Positions 5,546 through 20,831 of a DNA stretch of 23,852 nucleotides are shown piece by piece. This DNA is from a virus. Lineage: Duplodnaviria > Heunggongvirae > Uroviricota > Caudoviricetes. The position numbers and the translations under genes were made by a program. Under the pieces are notes generated by a model. The model was not told the origin of the DNA, searched no databases, and saw only the letters and a program-made list of their open reading frames with translations. The DNA is taken from the IMG/VR virus record IMGVR_UViG_2585427740_000001. One strand, 5' to 3'. Each line of letters starts with the position of its first letter. Within the stretch, counting starts at the first letter, position 1.

Positions 5546-5761
5546 TCACCGTTCCTTAAAAACGCCGTTTAACATGCCGATTGCTAGACTTAAATGAGTC
5601 GGTGTGAATCCCATCAGCGTTACCGTTTCGCGGTGCTTCTTCAGTACGCTACGGCAAATGTCATCGACGTTTTTATCCGGAAACTGCTGTCTGGCTTTTT
5701 TGATTTCAGAATTAGCCTGACGGGCAATGCTGCGAAGGGCGTTTTCCTGCTGAGGTGTCAC
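5546..5761 (-). CDS. Hypothetical small protein (71 aa from GTG 5761; alternatively 93 aa from ATG 5827)
   Basis: ORF-track ORF 5546-5827. The GTG at 5761 overlaps the TGA of the upstream 27-aa peptide ORF (GTGA), suggesting coupling. The N-terminal 22 residues of the longer form look like out-of-frame translation of the peptide gene. Confidence 0.5.
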   Translation of the reverse strand: MTPQQENALRSIARQANSEIKKARQQFPDKNVDDICRSVLKKHRETVTLMGFTPTHLSLAIGMLNGVFKER

Positions 5762-5841
5762 TGAACAAGCCCCATGTCGGCAAGCATAAGCACACAGAAT
5801 ATGAAGCCCGCTGCCAGAAAAATGCATTCAGTGGTTGTCAT
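5758..5841 (-). CDS. Candidate 27-aa hydrophobic (single transmembrane) peptide MTTTECIFLAAGFIFCVLMLADMGLVQ
   Basis: ATG overlaps the TGA stop of the upstream 63-aa ORF (ATGA). Hydrophobic core of about 17 residues. Found by hand translation; below ORF-track cutoff. Confidence 0.35.
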   Translation of the reverse strand: MTTTECIFLAAGFIFCVLMLADMGLVQ

Positions 5842-6029
5842 ACCTGGTCTCTCTCATCTGCTTCTGCTTTCGCCACCATCATTTCCAGTTTTTGTGAAAG
5901 GGATGTGGCTAACGTATGAAATTCTTCGTCTGTTTCTACTGGTATTGGCACAAACCTGATTCCAATTTGAGCAAGGCTATGTGCCATCTCGATACTCGTT
6001 CTTAACTCAACAGGAGATGCTTTGTGCAT
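5838..6029 (-). CDS. Hypothetical protein, 63 aa, immediately downstream of exo in the leftward operon
   Basis: ORF with GAGG 6-8 nt upstream of ATG; same strand and spacing as the early-left operon genes. Confidence 0.55.
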   Translation of the reverse strand: MHKASPVELRTSIEMAHSLAQIGIRFVPIPVETDEEFHTLATSLSQKLEMMVAKAEADERDQV

Positions 6030-6180
6030 ACAGCCCCTCGTTTATTATTTATCTCCTCAGCCAGCCGCTGTGCTTTCAGTGGATTTCGGATAACAGAAAG
6101 GCCGGGAAATACCCAGCCTCGCTTTGTAACGGAGTAGACGAAAGTGATTGCGCCTACCCGGATATTATCGTGAGGATGCG

Positions 6181-6861
6181 TCATCGCCATTGCTCCCCAA
6201 ATACAAAACCAATTTCAGCCAGTGCCTCGTCCATTTTTTCGATGAACACCGGCACCATCTCGTCAAAACTCGCCATGTACTTTTCATCCCGCTCAACCAC
6301 GACATAATGCAGTCCTTCACGCTTCATACGCGGGTCATAGTTGGCAAAGTACCAGGCATCTTTTCGTGTCACCCACATGCTGTACTGCACCTGGGCCATG
6401 TAAGCCGACTTTATGGCCTCGAAACCACCGAGCCGGAACTTCATGAAATCCCGGGAGGTAAACGGGCATTTCAGCTCAAGGCCATTGCCGTCACTGCATA
6501 AACCATCGGGAGAGCAGGCGGTGCGCATACTTTCGTCGCGATAGATGATCGGGGATTCAGTAACATTCACGCCGGAAGTGAATTCAAACAGGGTTCTGGC
6601 GTCGTTCTCGTACTGTTTTCCCCATGCCAGCGCCTTAGCATTAACTTCCGGAGCCACACCGGTGCAAACCTCAGCCAGCAGGGTGTGGAAGTAGGACATT
6701 TTCATGTCAGGCCACTTCTTTCCTGAGCGGGGCTTGGCTATCACGTTGTGAACTTCTGAAGCGGTGATGACGCCGAGCCGTAATTTGTGCCATGCATCAT
6801 CCCCCTGTTCGACAGCTCTCACGTCGATCCCGGTACGCTGCAGGATAATGTCCGGTGTCAT
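6181..6861 (-). CDS. exo: Lambda exonuclease (Red-alpha)
   Basis: 226-aa translation ([30 protein letters not shown]...) matches lambda Exo as recalled. Confidence 0.97.
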
Positions 6862-7306
6862 GCTGCCACCTTCTGCTCAGTGGCTTTCTGTTTCAGGAAT
6901 CCAAGAGCTTTCACTGCTTCGGCCTGTGTCAGTTCTGACGATGCGCGAATGTCGCGGCGAAATATCTGGGAACAGAGCGGCAATAAGTCGTCATCCCATG
7001 TTTTGTCCAGGGCAATCAGCAGAGTGTTAATCTCCTGCATGGTTTCATCGTTAACCGGAGTAATGTCGCGTTCCGGCTGACGTTCTGCGGTGTATGCGGT
7101 ATTTTCGACAATGCGCTCGGCTTCATCCTTGTCATAGATACCAGCAAATCCGAAGGCCAGACGGGCACACTGAATCATGGCTTTATGCCGTAACATCCGT
7201 TTGGGATGCGACTGCCACGGCCCCGTAATTTCTCTGCCTTCGCGGGTTTTGAATGGTTCGCGGCGGCATTCATCCATCCATTCGGTAACGCAGATCGGAT
7301 GATTAC
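6858..7306 (-). pseudogene. bet: bet (Red-beta), 5'-truncated: only the C-terminal ~145 codons remain
   Basis: Translation from ...NHPICVTEWMDECRREPFKTREGREITGPWQSHPKRMLRH... to the C-terminus matches lambda Bet as recalled. The N-terminal ~115 codons are absent and the frame runs into ren-derived sequence on the opposite strand. Confidence 0.88.
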
Positions 7307-7426
7307 CGGTTCGCTACCAGGGAAGAACGGGAAGGAAAGGTGAGCACGAATCTGATTTTCAAGGAGTGTCGCCAGAGTGCCGCGATGAAGCGGGTGTTGG
7401 CATTTTATCGCGGCAATTTTCAATAG
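7304..7426 (+). pseudogene. ren: ren 3' fragment (last ~40 codons: YRFATREEREGKVSTNLIFKECRQSAAMKRVLAFYRGNFQ*)
   Basis: Plus-strand frame matches the recalled C-terminus of lambda Ren (...YYRFATREEREGKMSTNLVFKECRQSAAMKRVLAVYGVKR). It begins abruptly at the bet breakpoint. Confidence 0.7.
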
Positions 7427-9737: not shown

Positions 9738-10020
9738 TTTGAGAAAAGCAGCGCGTGGTCGGGAATGCCAGGTAAGAATCCCTGGCGTATGTAATGGCAA
9801 CCCTGAAACGTCTGTACTGGCACATATCCGGCTGACTGGATTGTGCGGCACCGGTACGAAACCGCCAGACCTGATTGCCACCATTGCATGTTCTGCCTGC
9901 CACGACGAAATCGACCGCCGCACACATTTTGTCGATGCTGCATATGCAAAAGAATGCGCGCTGGAAGGTATGGCGAGAACACAGGTTATCTGGCTGAAAG
10001 AGGGGGTTATTAAGGCGTGA
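9730..10020 (+). CDS. ybcO: YbcO-family protein (DUF1364, putative nuclease), 96 aa
   Basis: ORF-track ORF 9691-10020; likely start [14 protein letters not shown]... at ATG 9730 with AGGAGG upstream. Cys/His-rich motif. Matches DLP12 YbcO as recalled. Confidence 0.8.
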
Positions 10021-10379
10021 ATACCTACAGCATCACATTACCCTGGCCTCCGAGCAATAATCGCTATTACCGCCATAATCGCGGGCGCACACACATCAGC
10101 GCAGAAGGGCAGGCATACCGCGATAACGTCACCCGAATCATTAAAAACGCAATGCTGGATATCGGCCTGGCTATGCCAGTGAAAATCCGTATTGAGTGCC
10201 ACATGCCGGATCGCCGTCGCCGTGACCTGGATAATCTGCAAAAAGCCGCTTTTGACGCACTCACCAAAGCAGGTTTCTGGCTGGATGATGCTCAGGTCGT
10301 TGATTACCGCGTTGTGAAGATGCCTGTTACCAAAGGTGGGAGGCTGGAACTGACCATCACCGAAATGGGGAATGAATGA
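10017..10379 (+). CDS. rusA: RusA Holliday-junction resolvase
   Basis: 120-aa translation ([26 protein letters not shown]...) matches RusA as recalled. Confidence 0.95.
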
Positions 10380-10516
10380 TGTTTGAGTTTAATATGGCAG
10401 AACTTCTTCGCCACCGCTGGATGCGCCTGCGCTTATATCGTTTCCCCAGTTCTGTTTTGACCGATTACCGAATACTGAGGAATTACGCCAAAACCCTGAC
10501 AGGAGCAGGAGTATGA
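10376..10516 (+). CDS. ylcG: YlcG-family small protein (46 aa)
   Basis: Hand translation [49 protein letters not shown] overlaps the rusA stop. Confidence 0.6.
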
Positions 10517-10601: not shown

Positions 10602-10985
10602 ATGCGTGATATTCAGATGGTTCTTGAGCGTTGGGGAGCGTGGGCGGCTAATAATCATGAAGATGTGACCTGGTCGTCCATTGCCGCCGGTTTTAAGGGA
10701 TTAATTACTTCAAAAGTAAAATCTCGCCCGCAATGTTGTGACGATGACGCGATGATCATTTGCGGGTGCATGGCCCGTCTGAAAAAGAACAACAGCGATT
10801 TGCACGATTTATTAGTAGATTATTATGTAGTCGGTATGACATTCATGTCACTGGCAGGTAAGCATTGCTGCTCTGATGGTTATATCGGGAAAAGGTTACA
10901 GAAGGCTGAGGGTATAATTGAAGGGATGTTAATGGCATTAGATATCCGGTTAGAGATGGATATCGTTGTTAATAACTCTAATTAA
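10602..10985 (+). CDS. Q: Late-gene antiterminator Q (QuuD-like, phage 82/21 type)
   Basis: 127 aa from ATG 10602 with GGAG RBS ([24 protein letters not shown]...). Matches DLP12 QuuD as recalled. Confidence 0.9.
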
Positions 10986-11102
10986 TATGCCAATTGTTTA
11001 CTAAAAATTATTAAAAATGGGGCGTTGAGACGCCCCCAAAAATAAAGGGTAATATATAACAGAAGGTTTATATAGTTAGAAGCAAGGTTGTGCTCCTAAA
11101 GG

Positions 11103-11165
11103 AAGTGGCTTGAGGGAGCCACTTATATGTTGGGGAGGCAAAGCCTCCCGCAACATATCTTTTAG
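11103..11165 (+). terminator. Two tandem stem-loops; the second (11125-11158, ~15-bp stem) is followed by CTTTTAG; candidate tR' of the late operon
   Basis: Inverted repeats AAGTGGCT/AGCCACTT and ATATGTTGGGGAGGC/GCCTCCCGCAACATAT read directly. Lies about 140 nt downstream of Q and just past the 3' end of the convergent porin gene. Confidence 0.5.
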
Positions 11166-11173
11166 TAATCAAA

Positions 11174-12256
11174 TTAGAACTGGTAAACCATACCTACAGC
11201 AACGATATCATCGGTAGCAACGCCAGATGCTTTCGTGAAATCGCTCTTATCAATCAGGTTGATTTTGTAATCAACAAAAGTGGACATATTTTTGTTGAAG
11301 TAATAGGTTGCACCTACATCAATATATTCAACCAGGTCCTGATCACCCCACGCACCCAAGTCTTTTCCTTTAGATTGCAGGTAAGCAACGGACGGACGCA
11401 GACCGAAGTCGAACTGATATTGTGCAACTACTTCGAAGTTTTGTGCTTTGTTGGCAATATGGTTATTACCAAAAACAGTCATGTTCTGGGTTTCAGAATA
11501 GGTGGTAGCCAGATAGATGTTGTTCGCATCATATTTCAGACCAGCTGCCCATACTTCAGCATTTTGACCAGATGCATTCAGGCTGTTGTTACCGTAGATA
11601 ACCTGATTATTAGTGCGGTCAGATTTAGCATAGGTTGCACCTACACCGAATCCTTCATACTCATAAGTAGTGGAGAAACCGAAACCATCACCATTAGCTT
11701 CAGTTACGTCAGTGCGGTCATTTTTACCCTGATACTGAGCAGCAAAGTTCAGACCATCAACCAGACCAAAGAAGTCATTGTTACGATAAGTTGCAACACC
11801 TGTGGTGCGACCAGTCATGAATACATCTGTTTGGGTCCAGGTATCGCCACCGAATTCTGGCAGAACGTCGGTCCATGCACCAATATCGTATGCTACACCG
11901 TAGTTACGGCCATAATCGATGGAGCCGTAGTCACCGAATTTCAGGCCAGCGAAGGCAAGACGGGTTTTATCTTTGGAGGAACCTTGAGATTCAGCGCGGT
12001 TGCCTTTGAATTCATATTCCCACTGACCGAAACCAGTCAGTTGATCGTTGATTTGGGTTTCACCTTTGAAGCCAAGACGGGCATAAGTAGTATCACCATC
12101 ATCTGCATCATTAGAGGAGAAGTAGTGCTTAGCATTAACTTTCCCGTACAGATCCAGCTTGTTACTGTCTTTATTATAAATTTCAGCTGCCTGAGCAGAC
12201 ATCGCCATCAGTACTGATGCAGCTACAGCAGAAATTGCCACTGTTAATTTTTTCAT
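11174..12256 (-). CDS. nmpC: General porin of the OmpC/OmpF/NmpC(Lc) family
   Basis: 360 aa from [23 protein letters not shown] (signal peptide) to the C-terminal ...VGMVYQF. Resembles NmpC/Lc as recalled. The ORF-track ORF extends 20 codons further upstream, judged spurious. Confidence 0.92.
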
Positions 12257-12682
12257 CGTGAGCCCTTTTTTTGAACTATTATTAAAAAATGATGTCACTG
12301 CGCGATAAATATTCATCTAATCAATGTGATTATTTCAAGATGTAAGTTTTGGTTTCTCATTTGATTTGTGAAGTAGATCTCTATTTTTATCTGAACTTTT
12401 TCTATCGAATCCTATTCATGGCTCTTGGCTGAATAAAAATAAATCTATTAGCCAATTTATATTAATGGCTGTTATTTATAAGTGCTCTATAATTTGAAGA
12501 TTCAATTTAAACCAGCTAAAAATAACGCTGGAAATTATTTGTTGGTTATTTGTTGAGATTTGCTTATGTATTTGTAGTGGTGTTTTCAATACTCGGTAGC
12601 ATTCTCGCAAATATCATTTAGTGGTTTACGTACGTAAAAAATTGGTTATGCTGTTAAGAGTGGTTACTTCGTCACACAGCTT

Positions 12683-12716
12683 AAACCCGCCGTCGAGCGG
12701 GTTTTTCCATTTTTTG
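12683..12716 (+). terminator. Intrinsic terminator-like hairpin (AAACCCGC-CGTCGA-GCGGGTTT) followed by TTCCATTTTTT
   Basis: Perfect 8-bp GC-rich stem and T-tract read directly. Lies in the AT-rich region between the porin start and S. Confidence 0.5.
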
Positions 12717-12843
12717 AGTCTCGATATTAGCTGATAACCCAATACCTGAGTTATTCACTGACTCCGAGTCTGTTACGTTTCTGCTTTTTTGCGATACGTT
12801 GTATTCCCTCAATTTACACCCGCTTTGTCTGCGAGGTGGGGTT

Positions 12844-13059
12844 ATGAAATCCATGGATAAGTTAACAACGGGTGTCGCCTATGGCACCTCAGCAGGTAGT
12901 GCCGGTTACTGGTTTTTACAGCTGCTCGATAAAGTCACGCCCTCACAGTGGGCAGCAATAGGTGTGCTGGGTAGCCTGGTATTTGGCCTGCTGACGTACC
13001 TGACAAACCTTTATTTCAAGATTAAAGAAGATAAGCGCAAGGCTGCGAGAGGTGAATAA
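12844..13059 (+). CDS. S: Class II holin (phage 21 S-type pinholin) with dual-start motif MKSMDK
   Basis: Translation [71 protein letters not shown] resembles S21 as recalled. Two Met codons three codons apart; two TM segments. Confidence 0.9.
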
Positions 13060-13556
13060 TGCCTCCATCATTACGAAAAGCCGTTGCTGCTGCTATTGGT
13101 GGCGGAGCAATTGCTATAGCATCAGTGTTAATTACTGGCCCAAGTGGTAACGATGGTCTGGAAGGTGTCAGCTACGTACCATACAAAGATATCGTTGGCG
13201 TATGGACTGTATGTCACGGACACACCGGAAAAGACATCATGCTCGGTAAAACGTATACCAAAGCAGAATGCAAAGCACTCTTGAATAAAGACCTTGCCAC
13301 TGTCGCCAGACAAATTAACCCGTACATCAAAGTCGATATACCGGAAACAACGCGCGGCGCTCTTTACTCATTCGTTTACAACGTGGGTGCTGGCAATTTC
13401 AGAACATCGACGCTTCTTCGCAAAATAAACCAGGGCGATATCAAAGGCGCATGTGATCAGCTACGTCGCTGGACATATGCTGGCGGTAAGCAATGGAAAG
13501 GTCTCATGACTCGTCGTGAGATTGAGCGTGAAATCTGTTTGTGGGGTCAGCAATGA
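13059..13556 (+). CDS. R: SAR endolysin (T4-lysozyme-like muramidase with N-terminal signal-anchor-release domain)
   Basis: 165 aa with a Gly/Ala-rich weakly hydrophobic N-terminus ([20 protein letters not shown]) followed by a lysozyme-like core. Start overlaps the holin stop. Confidence 0.92.
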
Positions 13557-14045: not shown

Positions 14046-14339
14046 TTATTGTGAGCAATACACACGCGCTTCCAGCGGAGTATAAATGCCTAAAGTAATA
14101 AAACCGAGCAATCCATTTACGAATGTTTGCTGGGTTTCTGTTTTAACAACATTTTCTGCGCCGCCACAAATTTTGGCTGCATCGACAGTTTTCTTCTGCC
14201 CAATTCCAGAAACGAAGAAATGATGGGTGATGGTTTCCTTTGGTGCTACTGCTGCCGGTTTGTTTTGAACAGTAAACGTCTGTTGAGCACATCCTGTAAT
14301 AAGCAGGGCCAGCGCAGTAGCGAGTAGCATTTTTTTCAT
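14046..14339 (-). CDS. bor: Bor lipoprotein (serum-resistance-associated)
   Basis: 97-aa translation MKKMLLATALALLITGCAQQTFTVQNKPAAVAPKETITHHFFVSGIGQKK... matches lambda Bor as recalled. Confidence 0.92.
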   Translation of the reverse strand: MKKMLLATALALLITGCAQQTFTVQNKPAAVAPKETITHHFFVSGIGQKKTVDAAKICGGAENVVKTETQQTFVNGLLGFITLGIYTPLEARVYCSQ

Positions 14340-16279: not shown

Positions 16280-16795
16280 ATGGAAGTCAACAAAAAGCAG
16301 CTGGCTGACATTTTCGGTGCGAGTATCCGTACCATTCAGAACTGGCAGGAACAGGGAATGCCCGTTCTGCGAGGCGGTGGCAAGGGTAATGAGGTGCTTT
16401 ATGACTCTGCCGCCGTCATAAAATGGTATGCCGAAAGGGATGCTGAAATTGAGAACGAAAAGCTGCGCCGGGAGGTTGAAGAACTGCGGCAGGCCAGCGA
16501 GGCAGATCTCCAGCCAGGGACTATTGAGTACGAACGCCATCGACTTACGCGTGCGCAGGCCGACGCACAGGAACTGAAGAATGCCAGAGACTCCGCTGAA
16601 GTGGTGGAAACCGCATTCTGTACTTTCGTGTTGTCGCGGATCGCAGGTGAAATTGCCAGTATTCTCGACGGGATCCCCCTGTCGGTGCAGCGGCGTTTTC
16701 CGGAACTGGAAAACCGACATGTTGATTTCCTGAAACGGGATATCATCAAAGCCATGAACAAAGCAGCCGCGCTGGATGAACTGATACCGTTATGA
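16280..16795 (+). CDS. nu1: Terminase small subunit Nu1, C-terminally altered (171 aa; the last ~10 residues of lambda Nu1 are replaced by a single L and a stop)
   Basis: Translation MEVNKKQLADIFGASIRTIQNWQEQGMPVLRGGGKGNEVLYDSAAVIKWYAERD... matches lambda Nu1 through ...AALDELIP, then diverges at about 16789. Confidence 0.9.
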   Translation: MEVNKKQLADIFGASIRTIQNWQEQGMPVLRGGGKGNEVLYDSAAVIKWYAERDAEIENEKLRREVEELRQASEADLQPGTIEYERHRLTRAQADAQELKNARDSAEVVETAFCTFVLSRIAGEIASILDGIPLSVQRRFPELENRHVDFLKRDIIKAMNKAAALDELIPL

Positions 16796-16817
16796 GTTTA
16801 CGGATACGCTGGGGCTG

Positions 16818-17222
16818 GTGACGTCATTCAGCTATGCAGGAGACAAGAATCGCCAGCTGACCCATTACAGCGATACCCGCTGGCATGAAGATTCCGTTCG
16901 TAACCGCTGGTTCAGCGTAATGGCGGGGCCGTCTGTGCGCGTGAATGAATGGTTCAGCGCGTATGCGATGGCGGGTGTGGCTTACAGCCGTGTGTCGACT
17001 TTCTCCGGGGATTATCTCCGCGTAACTGACAACAAGGGGAAAACGCACGACGTGCTGACCGGAAGTGATGACGGTCGCCACAGCAACACGTCTCTGGCGT
17101 GGGGAGCTGGCGTGCAGTTTAACCCGACCGAATCCGTGGCCATTGATATTGCTTATGAAGGCTCCGGCAGTGGCGACTGGCGCACTGACGGTTTCATCGT
17201 GGGTGTCGGTTATAAGTTCTGA
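16818..17222 (+). pseudogene. lom: lom (Ail/Lom/PagC-family outer-membrane protein), 3' fragment lacking signal peptide and proper start
   Basis: C-terminal ...SVMAGP...AYAMAGVA...IAYEGSGSGDWRTDGFIVGVGYKF matches the lambda Lom C-terminus as recalled. Upstream sequence is nu1; no ATG or signal peptide. Confidence 0.85.
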
Positions 17223-17250
17223 TTAGCCAGGTAACACAGTGTTATGACAG

Positions 17251-17276
17251 CCCGCCGGTTCAGGCGGGCTTTTTTG
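17251..17276 (+). terminator. Rho-independent terminator (GCCCGCC-GGTTCAG-GCGGGC followed by TTTTTT)
   Basis: Perfect GC-rich hairpin plus T6, read directly. Immediately downstream of the lom fragment. Confidence 0.85.
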
Positions 17277-17286
17277 TGGGGTGAAT

Positions 17287-20250
17287 ATGGCAGTAAAGAT
17301 TTCAGGTGTACTGAAAGACGGCACAGGAAAACCGGTACAGAACTGCACAATCCAGCTGAAAGCAAAACGTAACAGCACCGCGGTGGTGGTGAACACGCTG
17401 GCCTCAGAAAATCCGGATGAAGCCGGGCGTTACAGCATGGACGTTGAGTACGGTCAGTACAGCGTTATTCTGTTGGTGGAAGGATTCCCGCCGTCACATG
17501 CCGGGACCATCACCGTGTATGAAGATTCCCGACCCGGTACGCTGAATGATTTTCTCGGTGCCATGACGGAGGATGATGCCCGTCCGGAGGCTCTGCGCCG
17601 TTTTGAACTGATGGTGGAAGAGGTGGCGCGTAACGCGTCCGCAGTGGCACAGAACACGGCAGCCGCGAAGAAGTCAGCCAGTGATGCCAGCACATCTGCC
17701 AGTGAGGCGGCAACTCATACAACCGATGCTGCAGGCTCAGCTCGTGCCGCCAGCACGTCAGCCGGACAGGCTGCATCATCTGCTCAGTCAGCATCTTCCA
17801 GCGCAGGAACGGCATCAACAAAGGCCAGTGAAGCATCGAAAAGTGCTGCTGCTGCAGAGTCCTCAAAAAGCGCGGCAGCTACCAGTGCCGCTGCGGCGAA
17901 AACGTCAGAAACGAATGCGGCAGCGTCACAACAATCAGCAGCCACTTCTGCATCCGCCGCGACCACGAAGGCGTCAGAAGCTGCCACCTCAGCCCGGGAT
18001 GCGGCGGCCTCAAAAGAGGCGGCAAAATCATCAGAAACGAGCGCAGCCTCGAGCGCCAGTAGTGCAGCCTCCTCGGCAACAGCGGCAGGAAATTCCGCGA
18101 AGGCGGCAAAAACGTCCGAGACGAACGCTAAGTCTTCTGAGACGGCAGCAGCACAGAGTGCCTCCGCAGCAGCAGACTCAAAAACAGCGGCTGCCTCATC
18201 TGCCAGCGCCGCGTCAACAAATGCCGGGCAGGCCTCAGCCAGTGCCACCGCTGCCGGAAAGTCGGCAGAAAGCGCCGCATCATCCGCTTCAACAGCCACA
18301 ACGAAGGCTGGCGAAGCCACTGAACAGGCCACGGCAGCAGCGAGGTCAGCTTCCGCAGCGAAGACATCCGAAACGAACGCGAAAGCGTCGGAAACCAGCG
18401 CAGAATCCTCAAAAACGGCTGCCGCATCGTCAGCCAGTTCGGCGGCGTCATCGGCATCATCGGCGTCTGCTTCAAAAGATGAGGCGACCAGACAGGCGTC
18501 AGCAGCGAAGGGCAGCGCCACGACGGCATCCACGAAGGCGACAGAGGCAGCTGGCAGTGCGACGGCGGCAGCTCAGAGCAAAAGTACGGCGGAATCCGCG
18601 GCAACGCGCGCCGAGACAGCAGCAAAACGGGCAGAGGATATTGCATCCGCCGTGGCGCTTGAGGATGCGAGCACGACGAAAAAGGGGATAGTACAGCTCA
18701 GCAGTGCGACTAACAGCACTTCCGAGTCACTGGCGGCAACGCCAAAAGCCGTTAAGGCCGCGTATGAGCTGGCTAACGGGAAATACACCGCACAGGATGC
18801 AACGACAGCACAGAAAGGGATAGTTCAGCTTAGCAACGCGACCAACAGCACATCTGAAATGCTGGCGGCAACGCCAAAGTCGGTAAAGGCAGCCTATGAC
18901 CTTGCTAACGGGAAATATACTGCTCAGGACGCTACGACAGCACAAAAAGGAATTGTCCAGCTCAGTAGTGCAACCAACAGCGCATCTGAAACGCTTGCCG
19001 CGACACCGAAAGCAGTGAAAGCAGCTAATGATAATGCGAATGGTCGGGTACCTTCTGCCCGTAAGGTGAATGGTAAGGCGCTTTCAGCGGATATAACACT
19101 GACGCCGAAAGATATTGGTACGCTTAACTCAACAACAATGTCATTCAGCGGTGGTGCTGGTTGGTTCAAATTAGCAACGGTAACCATGCCACAGGCGAGT
19201 TCTGTTGTTTCAATTACGTTGATTGGTGGCGCGGGATTTAACGTGGGGTCACCTCAACAGGCAGGTATATCTGAACTTGTTTTGCGTGCAGGTAATGGTA
19301 ATCCGAAGGGGATTACTGGTGCTTTATGGCAGCGCACATCGACAGGGTTTACAAATTTTGCCTGGGTCAATACATCTGGTGATACTTACGATATTTACGT
19401 TGCAATCGGAAATTATGCGACTGGTGTAAATATTCAATGGGATTATACCAGTAATGCCAGCGTGACGATTCATACGTCACCAGCATATTCTGCTAATAAG
19501 CCGGAAGGGTTAACGGACGGTACAGTTTATTCACTCTATACGCCATCAGAGCAGTTTTATCCGCCTGGCGCACCAATCCCGTGGCCATCAGATACCGTTC
19601 CGTCTGGCTATGCCCTGATGCAGGGGCAGACTTTTGACAAATCTGCATACCCGAAACTTGCAGCCGCTTATCCGTCAGCCGTGATCCCTGATATGCGTGG
19701 CTGGACGATTAAGGGCAACCCCGCCAGTGGTCGTGCCGTATTGTCTCAGGAACAGGACGGCATTAAATCGCACACCCACAGCGCCAGCGCATCCAGTACG
19801 GATTTGGGGACGAAAAACACATCGTCGTTTGATTACGGAACCAAATCCACGAATAACACCGGGGCGCATACCCATAGTATTAGCGGGACTGCAAATAGTG
19901 CCGGTGCGCACCAACACAAGAGTTCCGGTGCATTTGGTGGCACGAACACGAGCATTTTCCCTAATGGTTATACCGCGATTTCAAATCTAAGCGCGGGGAT
20001 TATGAGCACAACAAGCGGTAGTGGCCAGACTCGTAATGCAGGGAAGACATCATCAGATGGTGCTCATACCCACTCGCTGTCCGGCACTGCTGCAAGCGCA
20101 GGCGCACATGCACATACTGTCGGTATTGGTGCTCATACGCACTCCGTTGCGATTGGCTCACACGGACACACCATCACCGTTAACGCTGCTGGTAACGCGG
20201 AAAACACCGTCAAAAACATCGCATTTAACTATATTGTGAGGCTTGCATAA
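17287..20250 (+). CDS. stf: Side tail fibre protein Stf (about 987 aa from ATG 17287), with long Ala/Ser/Thr-rich low-complexity region, three ~43-aa tandem repeats and a His-rich C-terminal domain
   Basis: N-terminus [30 protein letters not shown]... and C-terminus ...[11 protein letters not shown] match lambda Stf as recalled. ORF-track ORF begins 2 codons upstream at GTG. Confidence 0.92.
18673..19050 (+). repeat. Three tandem ~129-132-nt repeats inside stf (unit encodes [19 protein letters not shown](S/M)[12 protein letters not shown](E/D)[11 protein letters not shown])
   Basis: Repeated peptide and nucleotide blocks starting near 18673, 18802 and 18934, read directly. Confidence 0.8.
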
Positions 20251-20831
20251 TGGCATTCAGAATGAGTGAACAACCACGGACCATAAAAATTTATAATCTG
20301 CTGGCCGGAACTAATGAATTTATTGGTGAAGGTGATGCATATATTCCGCCTCATACAGGTCTGCCAGCAAACAGTACCGATATTGCACCGCCAGATATTC
20401 CGGCTGGCTTCGTGGCTGTTTTCAACAGTGATGAGTCATCGTGGCATCTTGTTGAAGACCATCGGGGTAAAACAGTTTATGACGTGGCATCAGGGGACGC
20501 GTTATTTATTTCTGAACTCGGCTCATTACCGGAAAATGTTACCTGGTTATCCCCGGAAGGGGAGTTTCAGAAGTGGAACGGCACAGCCTGGGTGAAGGAT
20601 ACGGAAGCAGAAAAACTGTTCCGGATCCGGGAGGTGGAAGAAACAAAAAACAGCCTGATGCAGGTAGCCAGTGAGCATATAGCGCCGCTTCAGGATGCTG
20701 TGGATCTGGAGATCGCAACGGAGGAAGAAACCTTGTTGCTGGAAGCCTGGAAAAAGTATCGGGTATTGCTGAACCGTGTTGATACGTCAACTGCACAGGA
20801 TATTGAATGGCCAGTAGCACCTATAGGGTAA
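20250..20831 (+). CDS. tfa: Tail fibre assembly chaperone Tfa
   Basis: 193-aa translation [51 protein letters not shown]... matches lambda Tfa as recalled. ATG overlaps the stf stop. Confidence 0.95.

Follow-up and report, generated by a model that had tools for sequence, protein, structure and literature searches.

A leftward NmpC/Lc-type porin cassette between Q and a homologue of the late promoter pR' in a DLP12/PA-2-type lambdoid prophage

The window, i.e., the whole 23,852-nucleotide stretch of DNA that was analyzed, contains a prophage that adjoins ybhC and in which the immunity and replication region is missing via a recT'-'ren fusion. An intact porin gene is encountered on the minus strand between the antiterminator gene Q and the first late genes, S and R (12844-13556). 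The features of this region, with the evidence on which each was placed, are as follows.

10602-10985, plus strand: Q antiterminator gene (quuD); PF06530 match, E=3.5e-53
11003-11173, minus strand: 3' untranslated tail of the porin gene, region of the roughly 167-nt IpeX RNA; near-identity to the K-12 DLP12 nmpC-quuD spacer
11019-11036, minus strand: porin/IpeX terminator hairpin; terminator scan, GGGGCGTCTCAACGCCCC followed by ATTTTTAATA
11125-11163: hairpin with arms at 11125-11139 and 11143-11158 and one bulge; CTTTT at 11159-11163 on the plus strand
11174-12256, minus strand: intact porin gene of the nmpC/lc type; open reading frame list, 360 amino acids including the signal peptide
12257-12616, minus strand: AT-rich promoter/regulatory region of the porin gene; GC content 28-32%
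12272-12299, plus strand (towards S): sigmaE-like motif TGAACTA-N16-TCACT; motif scan
12364-12384: CRP site annotated in the PA-2 record; mapped onto the window unchanged
12625-12660, plus strand: pR' homologue; aligns with pR' of Sp5/933W
12625-12630, plus strand: -35 element of pR', TTTACG
12626-12637, plus strand: 12-bp dyad TTACGTACGTAA overlapping the -35 element of pR'
12647-12652, plus strand: -10 element of pR', TATGCT
12659, plus strand: A predicted as late transcription start; homology to the mapped Sp5 start
12661-12715, plus strand: initial transcribed region and intrinsic terminator, candidate tR'; terminator scan
12844-13059, plus strand: S (holin; essD); PF04971 match, essD label in K-12 and RefSeq genomes
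13059-13556, plus strand: R (lysozyme; rrrD); PF00959 match, rrrD label in K-12 and RefSeq genomes

The preliminary description of this DNA had recognized an NmpC/Lc-type porin moron on the minus strand between Q and S, and this identification was confirmed by the open reading frame, by a match to Pfam Porin_1 (PF00267, E=3.1e-153) in which residues 29-360 cover positions 1-337 of the 337 of the profile, and by 90% protein identity to Lc of phage PA-2. The differences from Lc concentrate at residues 181-235 and 262-266, and surface-loop residues are among those that differ. The signal peptide is identical to that annotated for Lc in GenBank J02580, and the protein ends in VYQF, thereby carrying the aromatic last residue for outer-membrane assembly. 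In RefSeq the same gene is labelled 'ompC: porin OmpC'. The order Q, porin on the opposite strand, S and R is the same in PA-2 (lc, J02580) and in DLP12 (qsr') of K-12 (nmpC), and the position of the porin gene between Q and S is shared by 434B as well; in PA-2 and DLP12 the downstream spacer, the CRP site, and the pR' module match those in the window exactly or almost exactly. The nmpC gene of K-12 DLP12 is interrupted by IS5, whereas the porin gene is intact here, and the present prophage lies next to ybhC, unlike DLP12, which occupies its own site. The cassette, a porin gene of the NmpC/Lc type that ends in an IpeX RNA tail, has long been known from DLP12/PA-2-type lambdoid prophages of E. 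coli, and is as such not new.

Many E. coli genomes contain 100% identical copies of the 2.6-kb porin module, and among 5426 genomes of this species at least 2394 carry the module at a coverage of at least 80%. It is also contained in 36 phage records, PA-2 and 434B among them, and all 74 IMG/VR loci that have an identical Q and sufficient flanking sequence contain the porin gene, the pR' module, and S, always in that order. As expected of a moron, the gene has a terminator of its own, as detected by the terminator scan, and a promoter of its own (PMC11677980), and it is present in some and absent from others of a set of related phages. Homology to phage Sp5 ends at about position 10963 and returns at about 12617, which marks the borders of the cassette; other related phages have different cargo or none between Q and pR'. 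On the left side, the DNA homology of Q to Sp5 and 1H12 stops just after GAGATGGAT (RLEMD), and the last 7 codons of Q, from about 10963 onwards, belong to the cargo segment. A faint likeness, GTTTAC..TAAAAATT, was seen at both borders (10996-11009 and 12624-12641); its left copy is accounted for by the U-run of the IpeX terminator.

Upstream of the porin gene, the GC content is 28-32% between about 12200 and 12600. The preliminary description had treated 12257-12800 as a single AT-rich region belonging to the porin gene; the AT-richness was borne out, but the unity was not, since from about 12617 onwards the segment consists of a conserved late-promoter/terminator module and the leader of S. 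In K-12, PnmpC has been located within positions -199 to -1 relative to the start codon, its transcription start has been determined by 5' RACE, and its regulation by CRP, OmpR, and IHF has been reported (PMC11677980).

From the porin stop codon to Q, the spacer shows approximately 98% identity to its K-12 counterpart. Its IpeX region is predicted to fold into five stem-loops, the last of which is the intrinsic terminator, with the U-run encoded at 11003-11018, and this minus-strand terminator (11036 to 11019), serving the porin/IpeX transcript, was the sole listing of a consensus terminator scan of the spacer. Folding of the minus strand gave a minimum free energy of -64.6 kcal/mol and a z-score of -8.8 relative to shuffled sequences, versus a z-score of -5.9 for the plus strand. 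IpeX is described in PMC12197685 as a 167-nt RNA from DLP12 that is made within the porin transcript, a length that fits the distance up to the terminator U-run here; the ends of IpeX were placed at the boundaries 11003-11173 on this basis and should be read as predicted. Regulation of OmpC by IpeX is mentioned in PMC12197685 and PMC3333887, and for the near-identical K-12 and PA-2 sequences the tail is reported to lower OmpC/OmpF synthesis. An Rfam search returned no IpeX model, but only an unrelated IS009 match and a sub-threshold Trp_leader match. The spacer hairpins show weak covariation; similarity among the sequences exceeds 93%, and most changes are single and rare; the few G.U-type changes favor the minus strand.

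The hairpin at 11125-11158 is the first stem-loop of IpeX in the 3' untranslated region of the porin transcript, and it may in addition act as a stop for plus-strand transcripts that leave Q. Its stem comprises 15 pairs and one bulge, the bulged base being variable or deleted in natural variants, and the C followed by TTTT on the plus strand agrees with the terminator-like hairpin and T-tract noted earlier at 11125-11165. K-12-type variants have CTTTTT in place of CTTTT, the minus-strand side lacks a U-run, and four variants have a G.U pair on the minus strand that corresponds to C.A on the plus strand. The earlier suggestion that this hairpin is positioned like tR' does not hold, since a promoter that would precede it is lacking: the promoter scan detected no sigma-70-like site on the plus strand from Q to the hairpin. 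The hairpin belongs instead to a transcript of the other strand.

A homologue of the late promoter was found on the other side of the porin gene. The -10 element, start, initial transcribed region, and terminator of this module are nearly invariant among the window, K-12, PA-2, Sp5, mEp460_4F5, SfII, PhiR55_1, and 1720a-02, and the initial transcribed region and terminator of Stx1_EH1992 are similar to those of the window. Positions 12624-12706 match the Q-proximal pR' region in about 280 Stx phages, and in the 933W record the homologous piece carries the labels 'promoter, homologous to pR'' and 'terminator, homologous to tR''. The pR' start of Sp5, as mapped by dRNA-seq, is the A homologous to A12659; its placement was obtained by fitting the 258-nt RNA length and the GU/AUU cleavage site at +173 to the Sp5 sequence. 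The pR'-like sequence, part of the AAGAGTGGTTAC module, is present in a single copy in the window, and short-word BLAST with four different pR' modules gave no second pR'-like copy near Q. The distance from the Q stop codon to the pR' homologue is 1.64 kb, with the porin cassette in between, so that the promoter does not directly follow Q.

The candidate tR' has its stem at 12683-12704 and a T-run extending to 12715, and lies 140 nt upstream of S. In 933W and Sp5, the pR'-tR' unit is the source of the StxS RNA, and its -35 and -10 elements, start region, initial transcribed sequence, and first hairpin all have homologous counterparts here. In 933W this unit begins within the last part of Q, and a second terminator, tRNAs, and stx come after it, whereas in the window it lies 1.6 kb from Q, is devoid of the second terminator, and is directly followed by S. 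Transcription in Sp5 lysogens evidently continues past the homologous first hairpin, as the 258-nt RNA stops at the second terminator; given the absence of the latter from the window, the hairpin at 12683 may be a leaky tR'. Within the initial transcribed region, TGGTTACTTC at +3 to +12 has the TG and TA of a -10-like element but misses the final T of the hexamer (TACTTC; the Sp5 counterpart is TACATT), and no convincing -10-like sigma-dependent pause element was identified in this region. In published work on K-12, the DLP12 lysis cassette has been placed under a Q-type antiterminator (PMC7918800), and genomic SELEX with RNA polymerase-sigmaS gave a peak in the insH(nmpC)/essD spacer (PMC5493296).

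The match of Q to PF06530 covers positions 1-118 of the 118 of the profile, and Q is 77% identical to Q of Sp5; its similarity to the Q21 chains in PDB entries 6P18 and 6JNX is distant (E=7.6e-7, residues 8-87), although Q21 shares the PF06530 domain, named 'Q21/Q933W family'. By these sequence comparisons, Q is a member of the Q21/Q933W family and not of the Q82 family. An assignment of QuuD as a phage-82-type Q was rejected, as Q of phage 82 is a protein of 229 amino acids that belongs to PF06323 and is unrelated to QuuD, and the phage 82 pR' features that had been fitted beside Q (an AAA start, an extended -10-like element, GCC at +15 to +17, and a pause at +25) were dropped with it. Q21 has a binding element in which TGAGCA occurs twice, at -21 and at -13; this direct repeat is missing from the pR' homologue, which has the 12-bp dyad over its -35 element instead. 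The difference does not speak against placing the protein in the family. Phage 1H12 encodes a Q that is 84% identical, yet it has a different promoter-like region beside Q and no copy of the present pR' module, and the pR' module is therefore not strictly predicted by the type of Q.

Taken together, a leftward porin cassette situated between Q and its late unit, the latter beginning with pR' at 12625-12660, is the reading that we consider likely. It builds directly on the identification of the genes, on homologies and positions, and on structure predictions. The whole cassette (about 10963-12616) would have been inserted between Q and the late unit on which Q acts, and the porin gene would be driven leftward by its own CRP-responsive sigma-70 promoter within 12257-12616. 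The porin transcript is predicted to pass the stop codon, to continue into a structured IpeX tail of approximately 170 nt, and to stop at 11019-11036, just before Q; with a tail that lowers OmpC/OmpF, the prophage would exchange the major porin of the host for its own. The late unit would start at A12659 and, without Q, stop at the 12683-12704 hairpin, whereas with Q late transcription would continue into S, R, and Rz. Promoter activity, termination, and dependence on Q, like the ends of IpeX, are predictions in this reading, with late start and stop carried over from Sp5 by homology. As Q acts in trans, the separation of 1.6 kb between Q and pR' is immaterial, and with the cassette located between the two, late transcription need not cross the porin gene. 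Antisense entry into the porin gene would be possible only by read-through from Q, which the 11125-11158 hairpin followed by CUUUU may limit.

The transcription model of the preliminary description was a different one: pR' would directly follow Q, 11125-11165 would be tR', and Q-modified polymerase would proceed antisense through the porin gene to S, the porin occupying an stx-like slot in the late operon. Textbook Q cassettes indeed have pR' right after Q (10.1101/651190), the 11125 hairpin with its long GC-rich stem and CTTTT(T) on the plus strand resembles a terminator, and a weak TTGAGA-N19-TAATAT can be read manually at 11026-11056. The latter, however, has a 19-bp spacer and is located inside the IpeX terminator stem, the scan offers no promoter-like site before the hairpin, and none of the pR' modules that accompany Q proteins of this family resembles the interval. 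Moreover, sequence variants keep G.U pairs in the hairpin on the minus strand only, and in an experiment in which a terminator was added within the K-12 nmpC/quuD spacer, the downstream antisense unit was not measurably affected (PMC11677980), which is weak evidence. With the homologue of a mapped pR' at 12625-12660, downstream of the porin gene, a position that is assigned by homology and that the preliminary description itself had named as grounds for rejecting its model, a late promoter next to Q is very improbable, and the proposal that late transcripts cross the porin gene antisense is, on the positions of these elements, probably wrong. The hairpin could still be a one-way insulator that terminates plus-strand transcripts leaving Q, be they from the early-right operon or from any promoter of Q, that would thereby shield the porin/IpeX unit from antisense transcription, and that is read through on the minus strand, a role that would add to the preferred reading and is compatible with it. 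The need of convergent genes for some stop signal and the bulged 15-pair stem with CUUUU or CUUUUU confined to the plus strand speak for this; the shortness of the U-run speaks against it, as do the wobble-type variants, which favor selection on the minus-strand RNA, and the 3-30 nt without such a hairpin that separate Q from leftward cargo in SfII and Stx1_EH1992. In addition, N-modified polymerase of lambda passes terminators during lytic growth, and would ignore this one. An insulating function appears doubtful.

A further alternative concerns the defective state of the prophage, in which, with the immunity and replication region gone through the recT'-'ren fusion, the lysis genes might be transcribed mainly from the sigmaE-like promoter at 12272-12299, some 540 nt upstream of S, instead of by Q at pR', the 12625-12715 module being a relic that merely attenuates the sigmaE transcript. 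PMC7918800 reports regulation of the DLP12 lysis cassette by RpoE and uses a fragment named '-121 to +650', the forward primer of which matches exactly at 12184, whereas the reverse primer matches only approximately, near 12946-12969; by this primer mapping, the published regulatory fragment is located entirely between the 5' end of nmpC and essD, a location that also accords with the preferred placement of the late promoter. The +1 of that fragment would accordingly fall near 12305, with the sigmaE-like motif as its probable source, although this position is deduced from the forward primer, the reverse primer being approximate. The same source lists a Q-type antiterminator too as a regulator of the cassette, and functional phages keep the pR' module base for base; the combination of sigmaE-driven lysis genes and a relic pR' module is judged unlikely.

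The preferred reading, with the porin cassette between Q and its late unit, also separates the porin from the Shiga toxin genes, to which the preliminary description had assigned the same position. Both are accessory genes that lambdoid phages carry in the interval from Q to the lysis genes, but stx has the orientation of the late genes, follows pR'-tR' in 933W/Sp5 and in Stx2-II, and is expressed by Q antitermination, whereas the porin gene is located on the other strand, precedes the homologous pR', and can be expressed in the lysogen from a promoter of its own. Stx1_EH1992 contains both slots in one genome, in the order Q, three minus-strand open reading frames, pR' module, and stx1AB. The same architecture, with other leftward genes separating Q from pR', is found in mEp460_4F5, PhiR55_1, SfII, and Stx1_EH1992, and with other cargo in 70 of the 80 loci of a second Q subgroup. 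The cargo in SfII is a candidate defence pair identified by PADLOC (PDC-M53), and several sets of unknown open reading frames occupy this gap in other phages. Between Q subgroups, the dyad over the -35 element differs by compensating bases (TTACGTACGTAA, TTACGATCGTAA, AACGCGTACGCAA, and GCGGTCCGC), and it may represent an unrecognized binding element of these Q proteins. It is tentatively suggested, at a confidence well below that placed in the porin cassette itself, that in phages of the Q21/Q933W type the gap between Q and pR' is a general sheltered slot for leftward cargo, with the -35 dyad as the Q-binding element. If so, this slot would differ from the one that stx occupies beyond pR', and the lysogen could express its cargo free of any collision with late transcription that depends on Q.

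The cassette represents a textbook case of lysogenic conversion, in which OmpC of the host is replaced by a prophage porin, and almost half of the complete E. coli genomes carry it. The architecture described here corrects its position in the transcription program: the porin gene is a unit expressed in the lysogen between Q and the late promoter, and not a passenger of the late operon in the manner of Shiga toxin genes. For annotation and transcription modeling, this implies that a pR' abutting Q is not to be assumed in this phage family. Finally, the recurrence of leftward cargo between Q and pR', with candidate defence genes among it, could guide the finding of accessory genes in prophages.

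The lambdoid E. coli prophage that makes up the window adjoins ybhC and matches its closest complete genome at 99.9% identity in three collinear blocks. At 6858-7426, within a block sharing 99.98% identity with strain A14, recT and ren are both truncated and directly abut, and the N-cI-cro-O-P region is absent; the recT'-'ren fusion implies that the immunity and replication region is missing and that the prophage is defective. Extra or alternative DNA relative to strain A14 was found at 5572-6833 and 16790-19045, and comparison with the same strain places a full-length Rfam IS009 match (20593-20791, plus strand; 218 bits, E=1e-53) within a tail fibre assembly gene and not in intergenic DNA. 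The features around Q, including the homologue of the late promoter pR' and its terminator (together the module), are as follows:

10017-10379, rusA
10376-10516, ylcG
10602-10985, plus strand, Q (quuD)
11174-12256, minus strand, porin gene
12625-12630, plus strand, -35 element (TTTACG) of the pR' homologue, 16-nt spacer to the -10 element
12647-12652, plus strand, -10 element (TATGCT) of the pR' homologue, 6-nt gap to the start at A12659
12683-12704, plus strand, candidate tR' hairpin from the terminator scan, T-run to 12715
12844-13059, plus strand, S (essD)
13059-13556, plus strand, R (rrrD), followed by Rz
14046-14339, minus strand, bor (serum-resistance lipoprotein), just after Rz

The bor gene, on the strand opposite Rz, adds a second classical moron to this late region.

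The preliminary description of an NmpC/Lc-type porin gene on the opposite strand between Q and the lysis genes was borne out: the ORF is intact (360 aa), its product gives a full-length match to Pfam Porin_1 (E=3e-153), and this protein shares 90% identity with the Lc protein of phage PA-2, with differences clustering at residues 181-235 and 262-266. The 2.6-kb Q-to-R region has 100% identical copies in many E. coli chromosomes, occurs at 80% coverage or more in at least 2394 of 5426 complete genomes, and was found in 36 phage records, PA-2 and 434B among them; DLP12 of K-12 has the same arrangement, but with IS5 within nmpC. The layout shared with PA-2, 434B, and DLP12, together with the wide spread in E. 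coli, identifies a classical nmpC/lc lysogenic-conversion gene, and both this gene and its RNA tail have long been known. In K-12, 5' RACE maps the porin promoter PnmpC to the 199 bp before the start codon; CRP activates this promoter, and OmpR and IHF repress it (PMC11677980). The window has an identical copy (12364-12384) of the CRP site given in the PA-2 annotation. The second 'CRP binding site' of the 1986 PA-2 record corresponds to 12659-12679, the conserved initial transcribed region of the pR' homologue, and is a doubtful annotation because of its poor CRP match, with three mismatches in the half-sites.

Between Q and the porin stop codon, the 188-bp spacer is almost identical to its K-12 counterpart and folds into far more structure than shuffles do (minus strand, z=-8.8; plus strand, z=-5.9). 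Five stem-loops were predicted in this spacer on the porin strand, the last of which is an intrinsic terminator according to both scan and fold (GGGGCGTCTCAACGCCCC followed by AUUUUUAAUAAUUUUU, 11036..11003, minus strand). IpeX, a 167-nt DLP12 RNA made within the porin transcript, controls OmpC (reviewed in PMC12197685), and the porin tail is described in the literature as lowering OmpC/OmpF; since 167 nt counted from the porin stop codon end in the U-run of this terminator, we infer that IpeX maps here. The hairpin at 11125-11165 does exist, with arms at 11125-11139 and 11143-11158, one bulge, and a following CTTTT, and it is the first stem-loop of the porin 3' tail. Its bulged base is altered or deleted in natural variants, a few of which retain pairing solely as G.U, on the minus strand only; with sequences this similar, the spacer hairpins show weak covariation overall. 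The plus-strand face of the hairpin resembles a terminator and may stop plus-strand transcripts leaving Q. Its proposed tR'-like position was not sustained, as a promoter scan of the plus strand from Q to this hairpin found nothing.

Approximately 280 Stx phages match window 12624-12706 in their Q-proximal region, and the 933W record labels the matching piece 'promoter, homologous to pR'' and 'terminator, homologous to tR''. For Sp5, a Sakai prophage, the distance from the pR' start to the 3' end of StxS is 258 nt by dRNA-seq (PMC7547250). When this distance and the GU/AUU cleavage site reported at +173 are fitted to the sequence, the Sp5 start is the fourth base of AAGAG, and its homologous base in the window is A12659. 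The stretch from the -10 element through the hairpin end is almost invariant among the window, K-12, PA-2, Sp5, mEp460_4F5, SfII, PhiR55_1, and 1720a-02, even though their Q proteins are only 45-100% identical. No second copy or relative of the module was found elsewhere in the window, and all 74 identical-Q IMG/VR loci with enough flank are ordered porin, module, S. Independent hints agreeing with placement of pR' before S are the DLP12 lysis-cassette regulatory fragment of Pasqua et al., which begins within the 5' end of nmpC and extends into essD, the reported dependence of this cassette on a Q-type antiterminator (PMC7918800), and a sigmaS-holoenzyme SELEX peak in the nmpC/essD spacer (PMC5493296).

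QuuD belongs to PF06530, named the 'Q21/Q933W family' by Yin et al., and is 77% identical to Q of Sp5/933W; its classification as a phage-82-type Q was rejected, since the 82 Q (229 aa) belongs to PF06323. Within window 10954-10985, DNA homology of the Q gene to those of Sp5 and phage 1H12 ends at one point, ~10962, directly after GAGATGGAT (RLEMD codons), and this common break implies that each of these Q proteins has its own short C-terminal tail, encoded by downstream DNA. Homology to Sp5 resumes at ~12617, so that the porin cassette is a 1.65-kb insert between Q and pR', made up of a promoter region for the porin, its coding sequence, IpeX tail, and terminator, and the last seven codons of the window Q. 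The stx genes of Stx phages lie on the late strand downstream of pR'-tR', whereas the porin gene is on the minus strand upstream of the pR' homologue, and thus does not occupy the stx position that had been assigned to it; in Stx1_EH1992 the two slots occur together, Q being followed by three minus-strand ORFs, the pR' module, and then stx1AB. Moreover, Q-dependent late transcripts, which had been expected to cross the porin gene antisense, need not do so, because the pR' homologue lies past it at ~12659. The preliminary description was largely correct in its observation, and homology to an experimentally mapped promoter contradicts its transcription layout.

A 12-bp dyad overlaps the -35 element of the pR' homologue (window 12626-12637; Sp5, L006 713-724; homologous positions in mEp460_4F5, SfII, 1720a-02, and Stx1_EH1992, i.e., L008, L090, L092, and L093), reading TTACGTACGTAA in the window, TTACGATCGTAA in Sp5, AACGCGTACGCAA in mEp460/SfII/EH1992, and GCGGTCCGC in 1720a-02. 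As its symmetry is maintained through compensating changes and its variants follow the Q subgroups, the dyad may be a protein binding site, possibly for Q. Q21-type TGAGCA repeats were not found at the pR' homologue, and no clear -10-like pause element is visible in its initial transcribed region. A sigmaE-like motif (TGAACTA-N16-TCACT; 12272-12299, plus strand) inside the porin 5' leader region is oriented towards S, agrees with the '+1' that follows from the lysis-cassette fragment ('-121 to +650') published for DLP12, and may also feed the lysis genes. In Sp5 lysogens (compared over L006 769-1003), transcription evidently passes the homologous hairpin and reaches a second terminator located 258 nt from the start, whereas no second terminator before S is present in window 12683-12843; low constitutive lysis-gene expression from pR' is therefore conceivable.

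The most likely working is that of a lysogen porin unit and a separate Q-dependent late unit. In the lysogen, leftward porin transcription from PnmpC would run on through the IpeX tail, which would lower OmpC/OmpF as in the literature, and stop at the terminator before Q. The late unit would begin at ~12659, its transcript ending without Q at the hairpin ~45-55 nt downstream and carrying on with Q into S-R-Rz.

Other minus-strand ORFs lie between a PF06530 Q and the same module in mEp460_4F5, PhiR55_1, SfII, and Stx1_EH1992 (gap regions L008 463-2000, L091 1906-2500, L090 826-2500, and L093 1004-3200, respectively), and two ORFs in the SfII gap match the PADLOC candidate defence pair PDC-M53A/B. 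In a second Q subgroup, surveyed in 80 IMG/VR loci (L095-L174) with intervening ORFs counted from 80 aa up, the module lies 0.6-2.5 kb past Q in 70 of the 80, and nearly all the gap ORFs, which form at least ten different sets, are on the minus strand. Phage 1H12 departs from this pattern: its Q is 84% identical to the window Q, yet a different promoter-like region lies beside it (L004 3880-4010; TTGCTG-17-TAATGT, then TGTTAGAAT), followed by a terminator similar to the second one of 933W and, downstream, the minus-strand lipocalin gene blc; unlike the window, 1H12 has no copy of the AAGAGTGGTTAC module. The one modestly new angle offered by these data is that the gap between Q and pR' may be a slot used repeatedly by leftward cargo.
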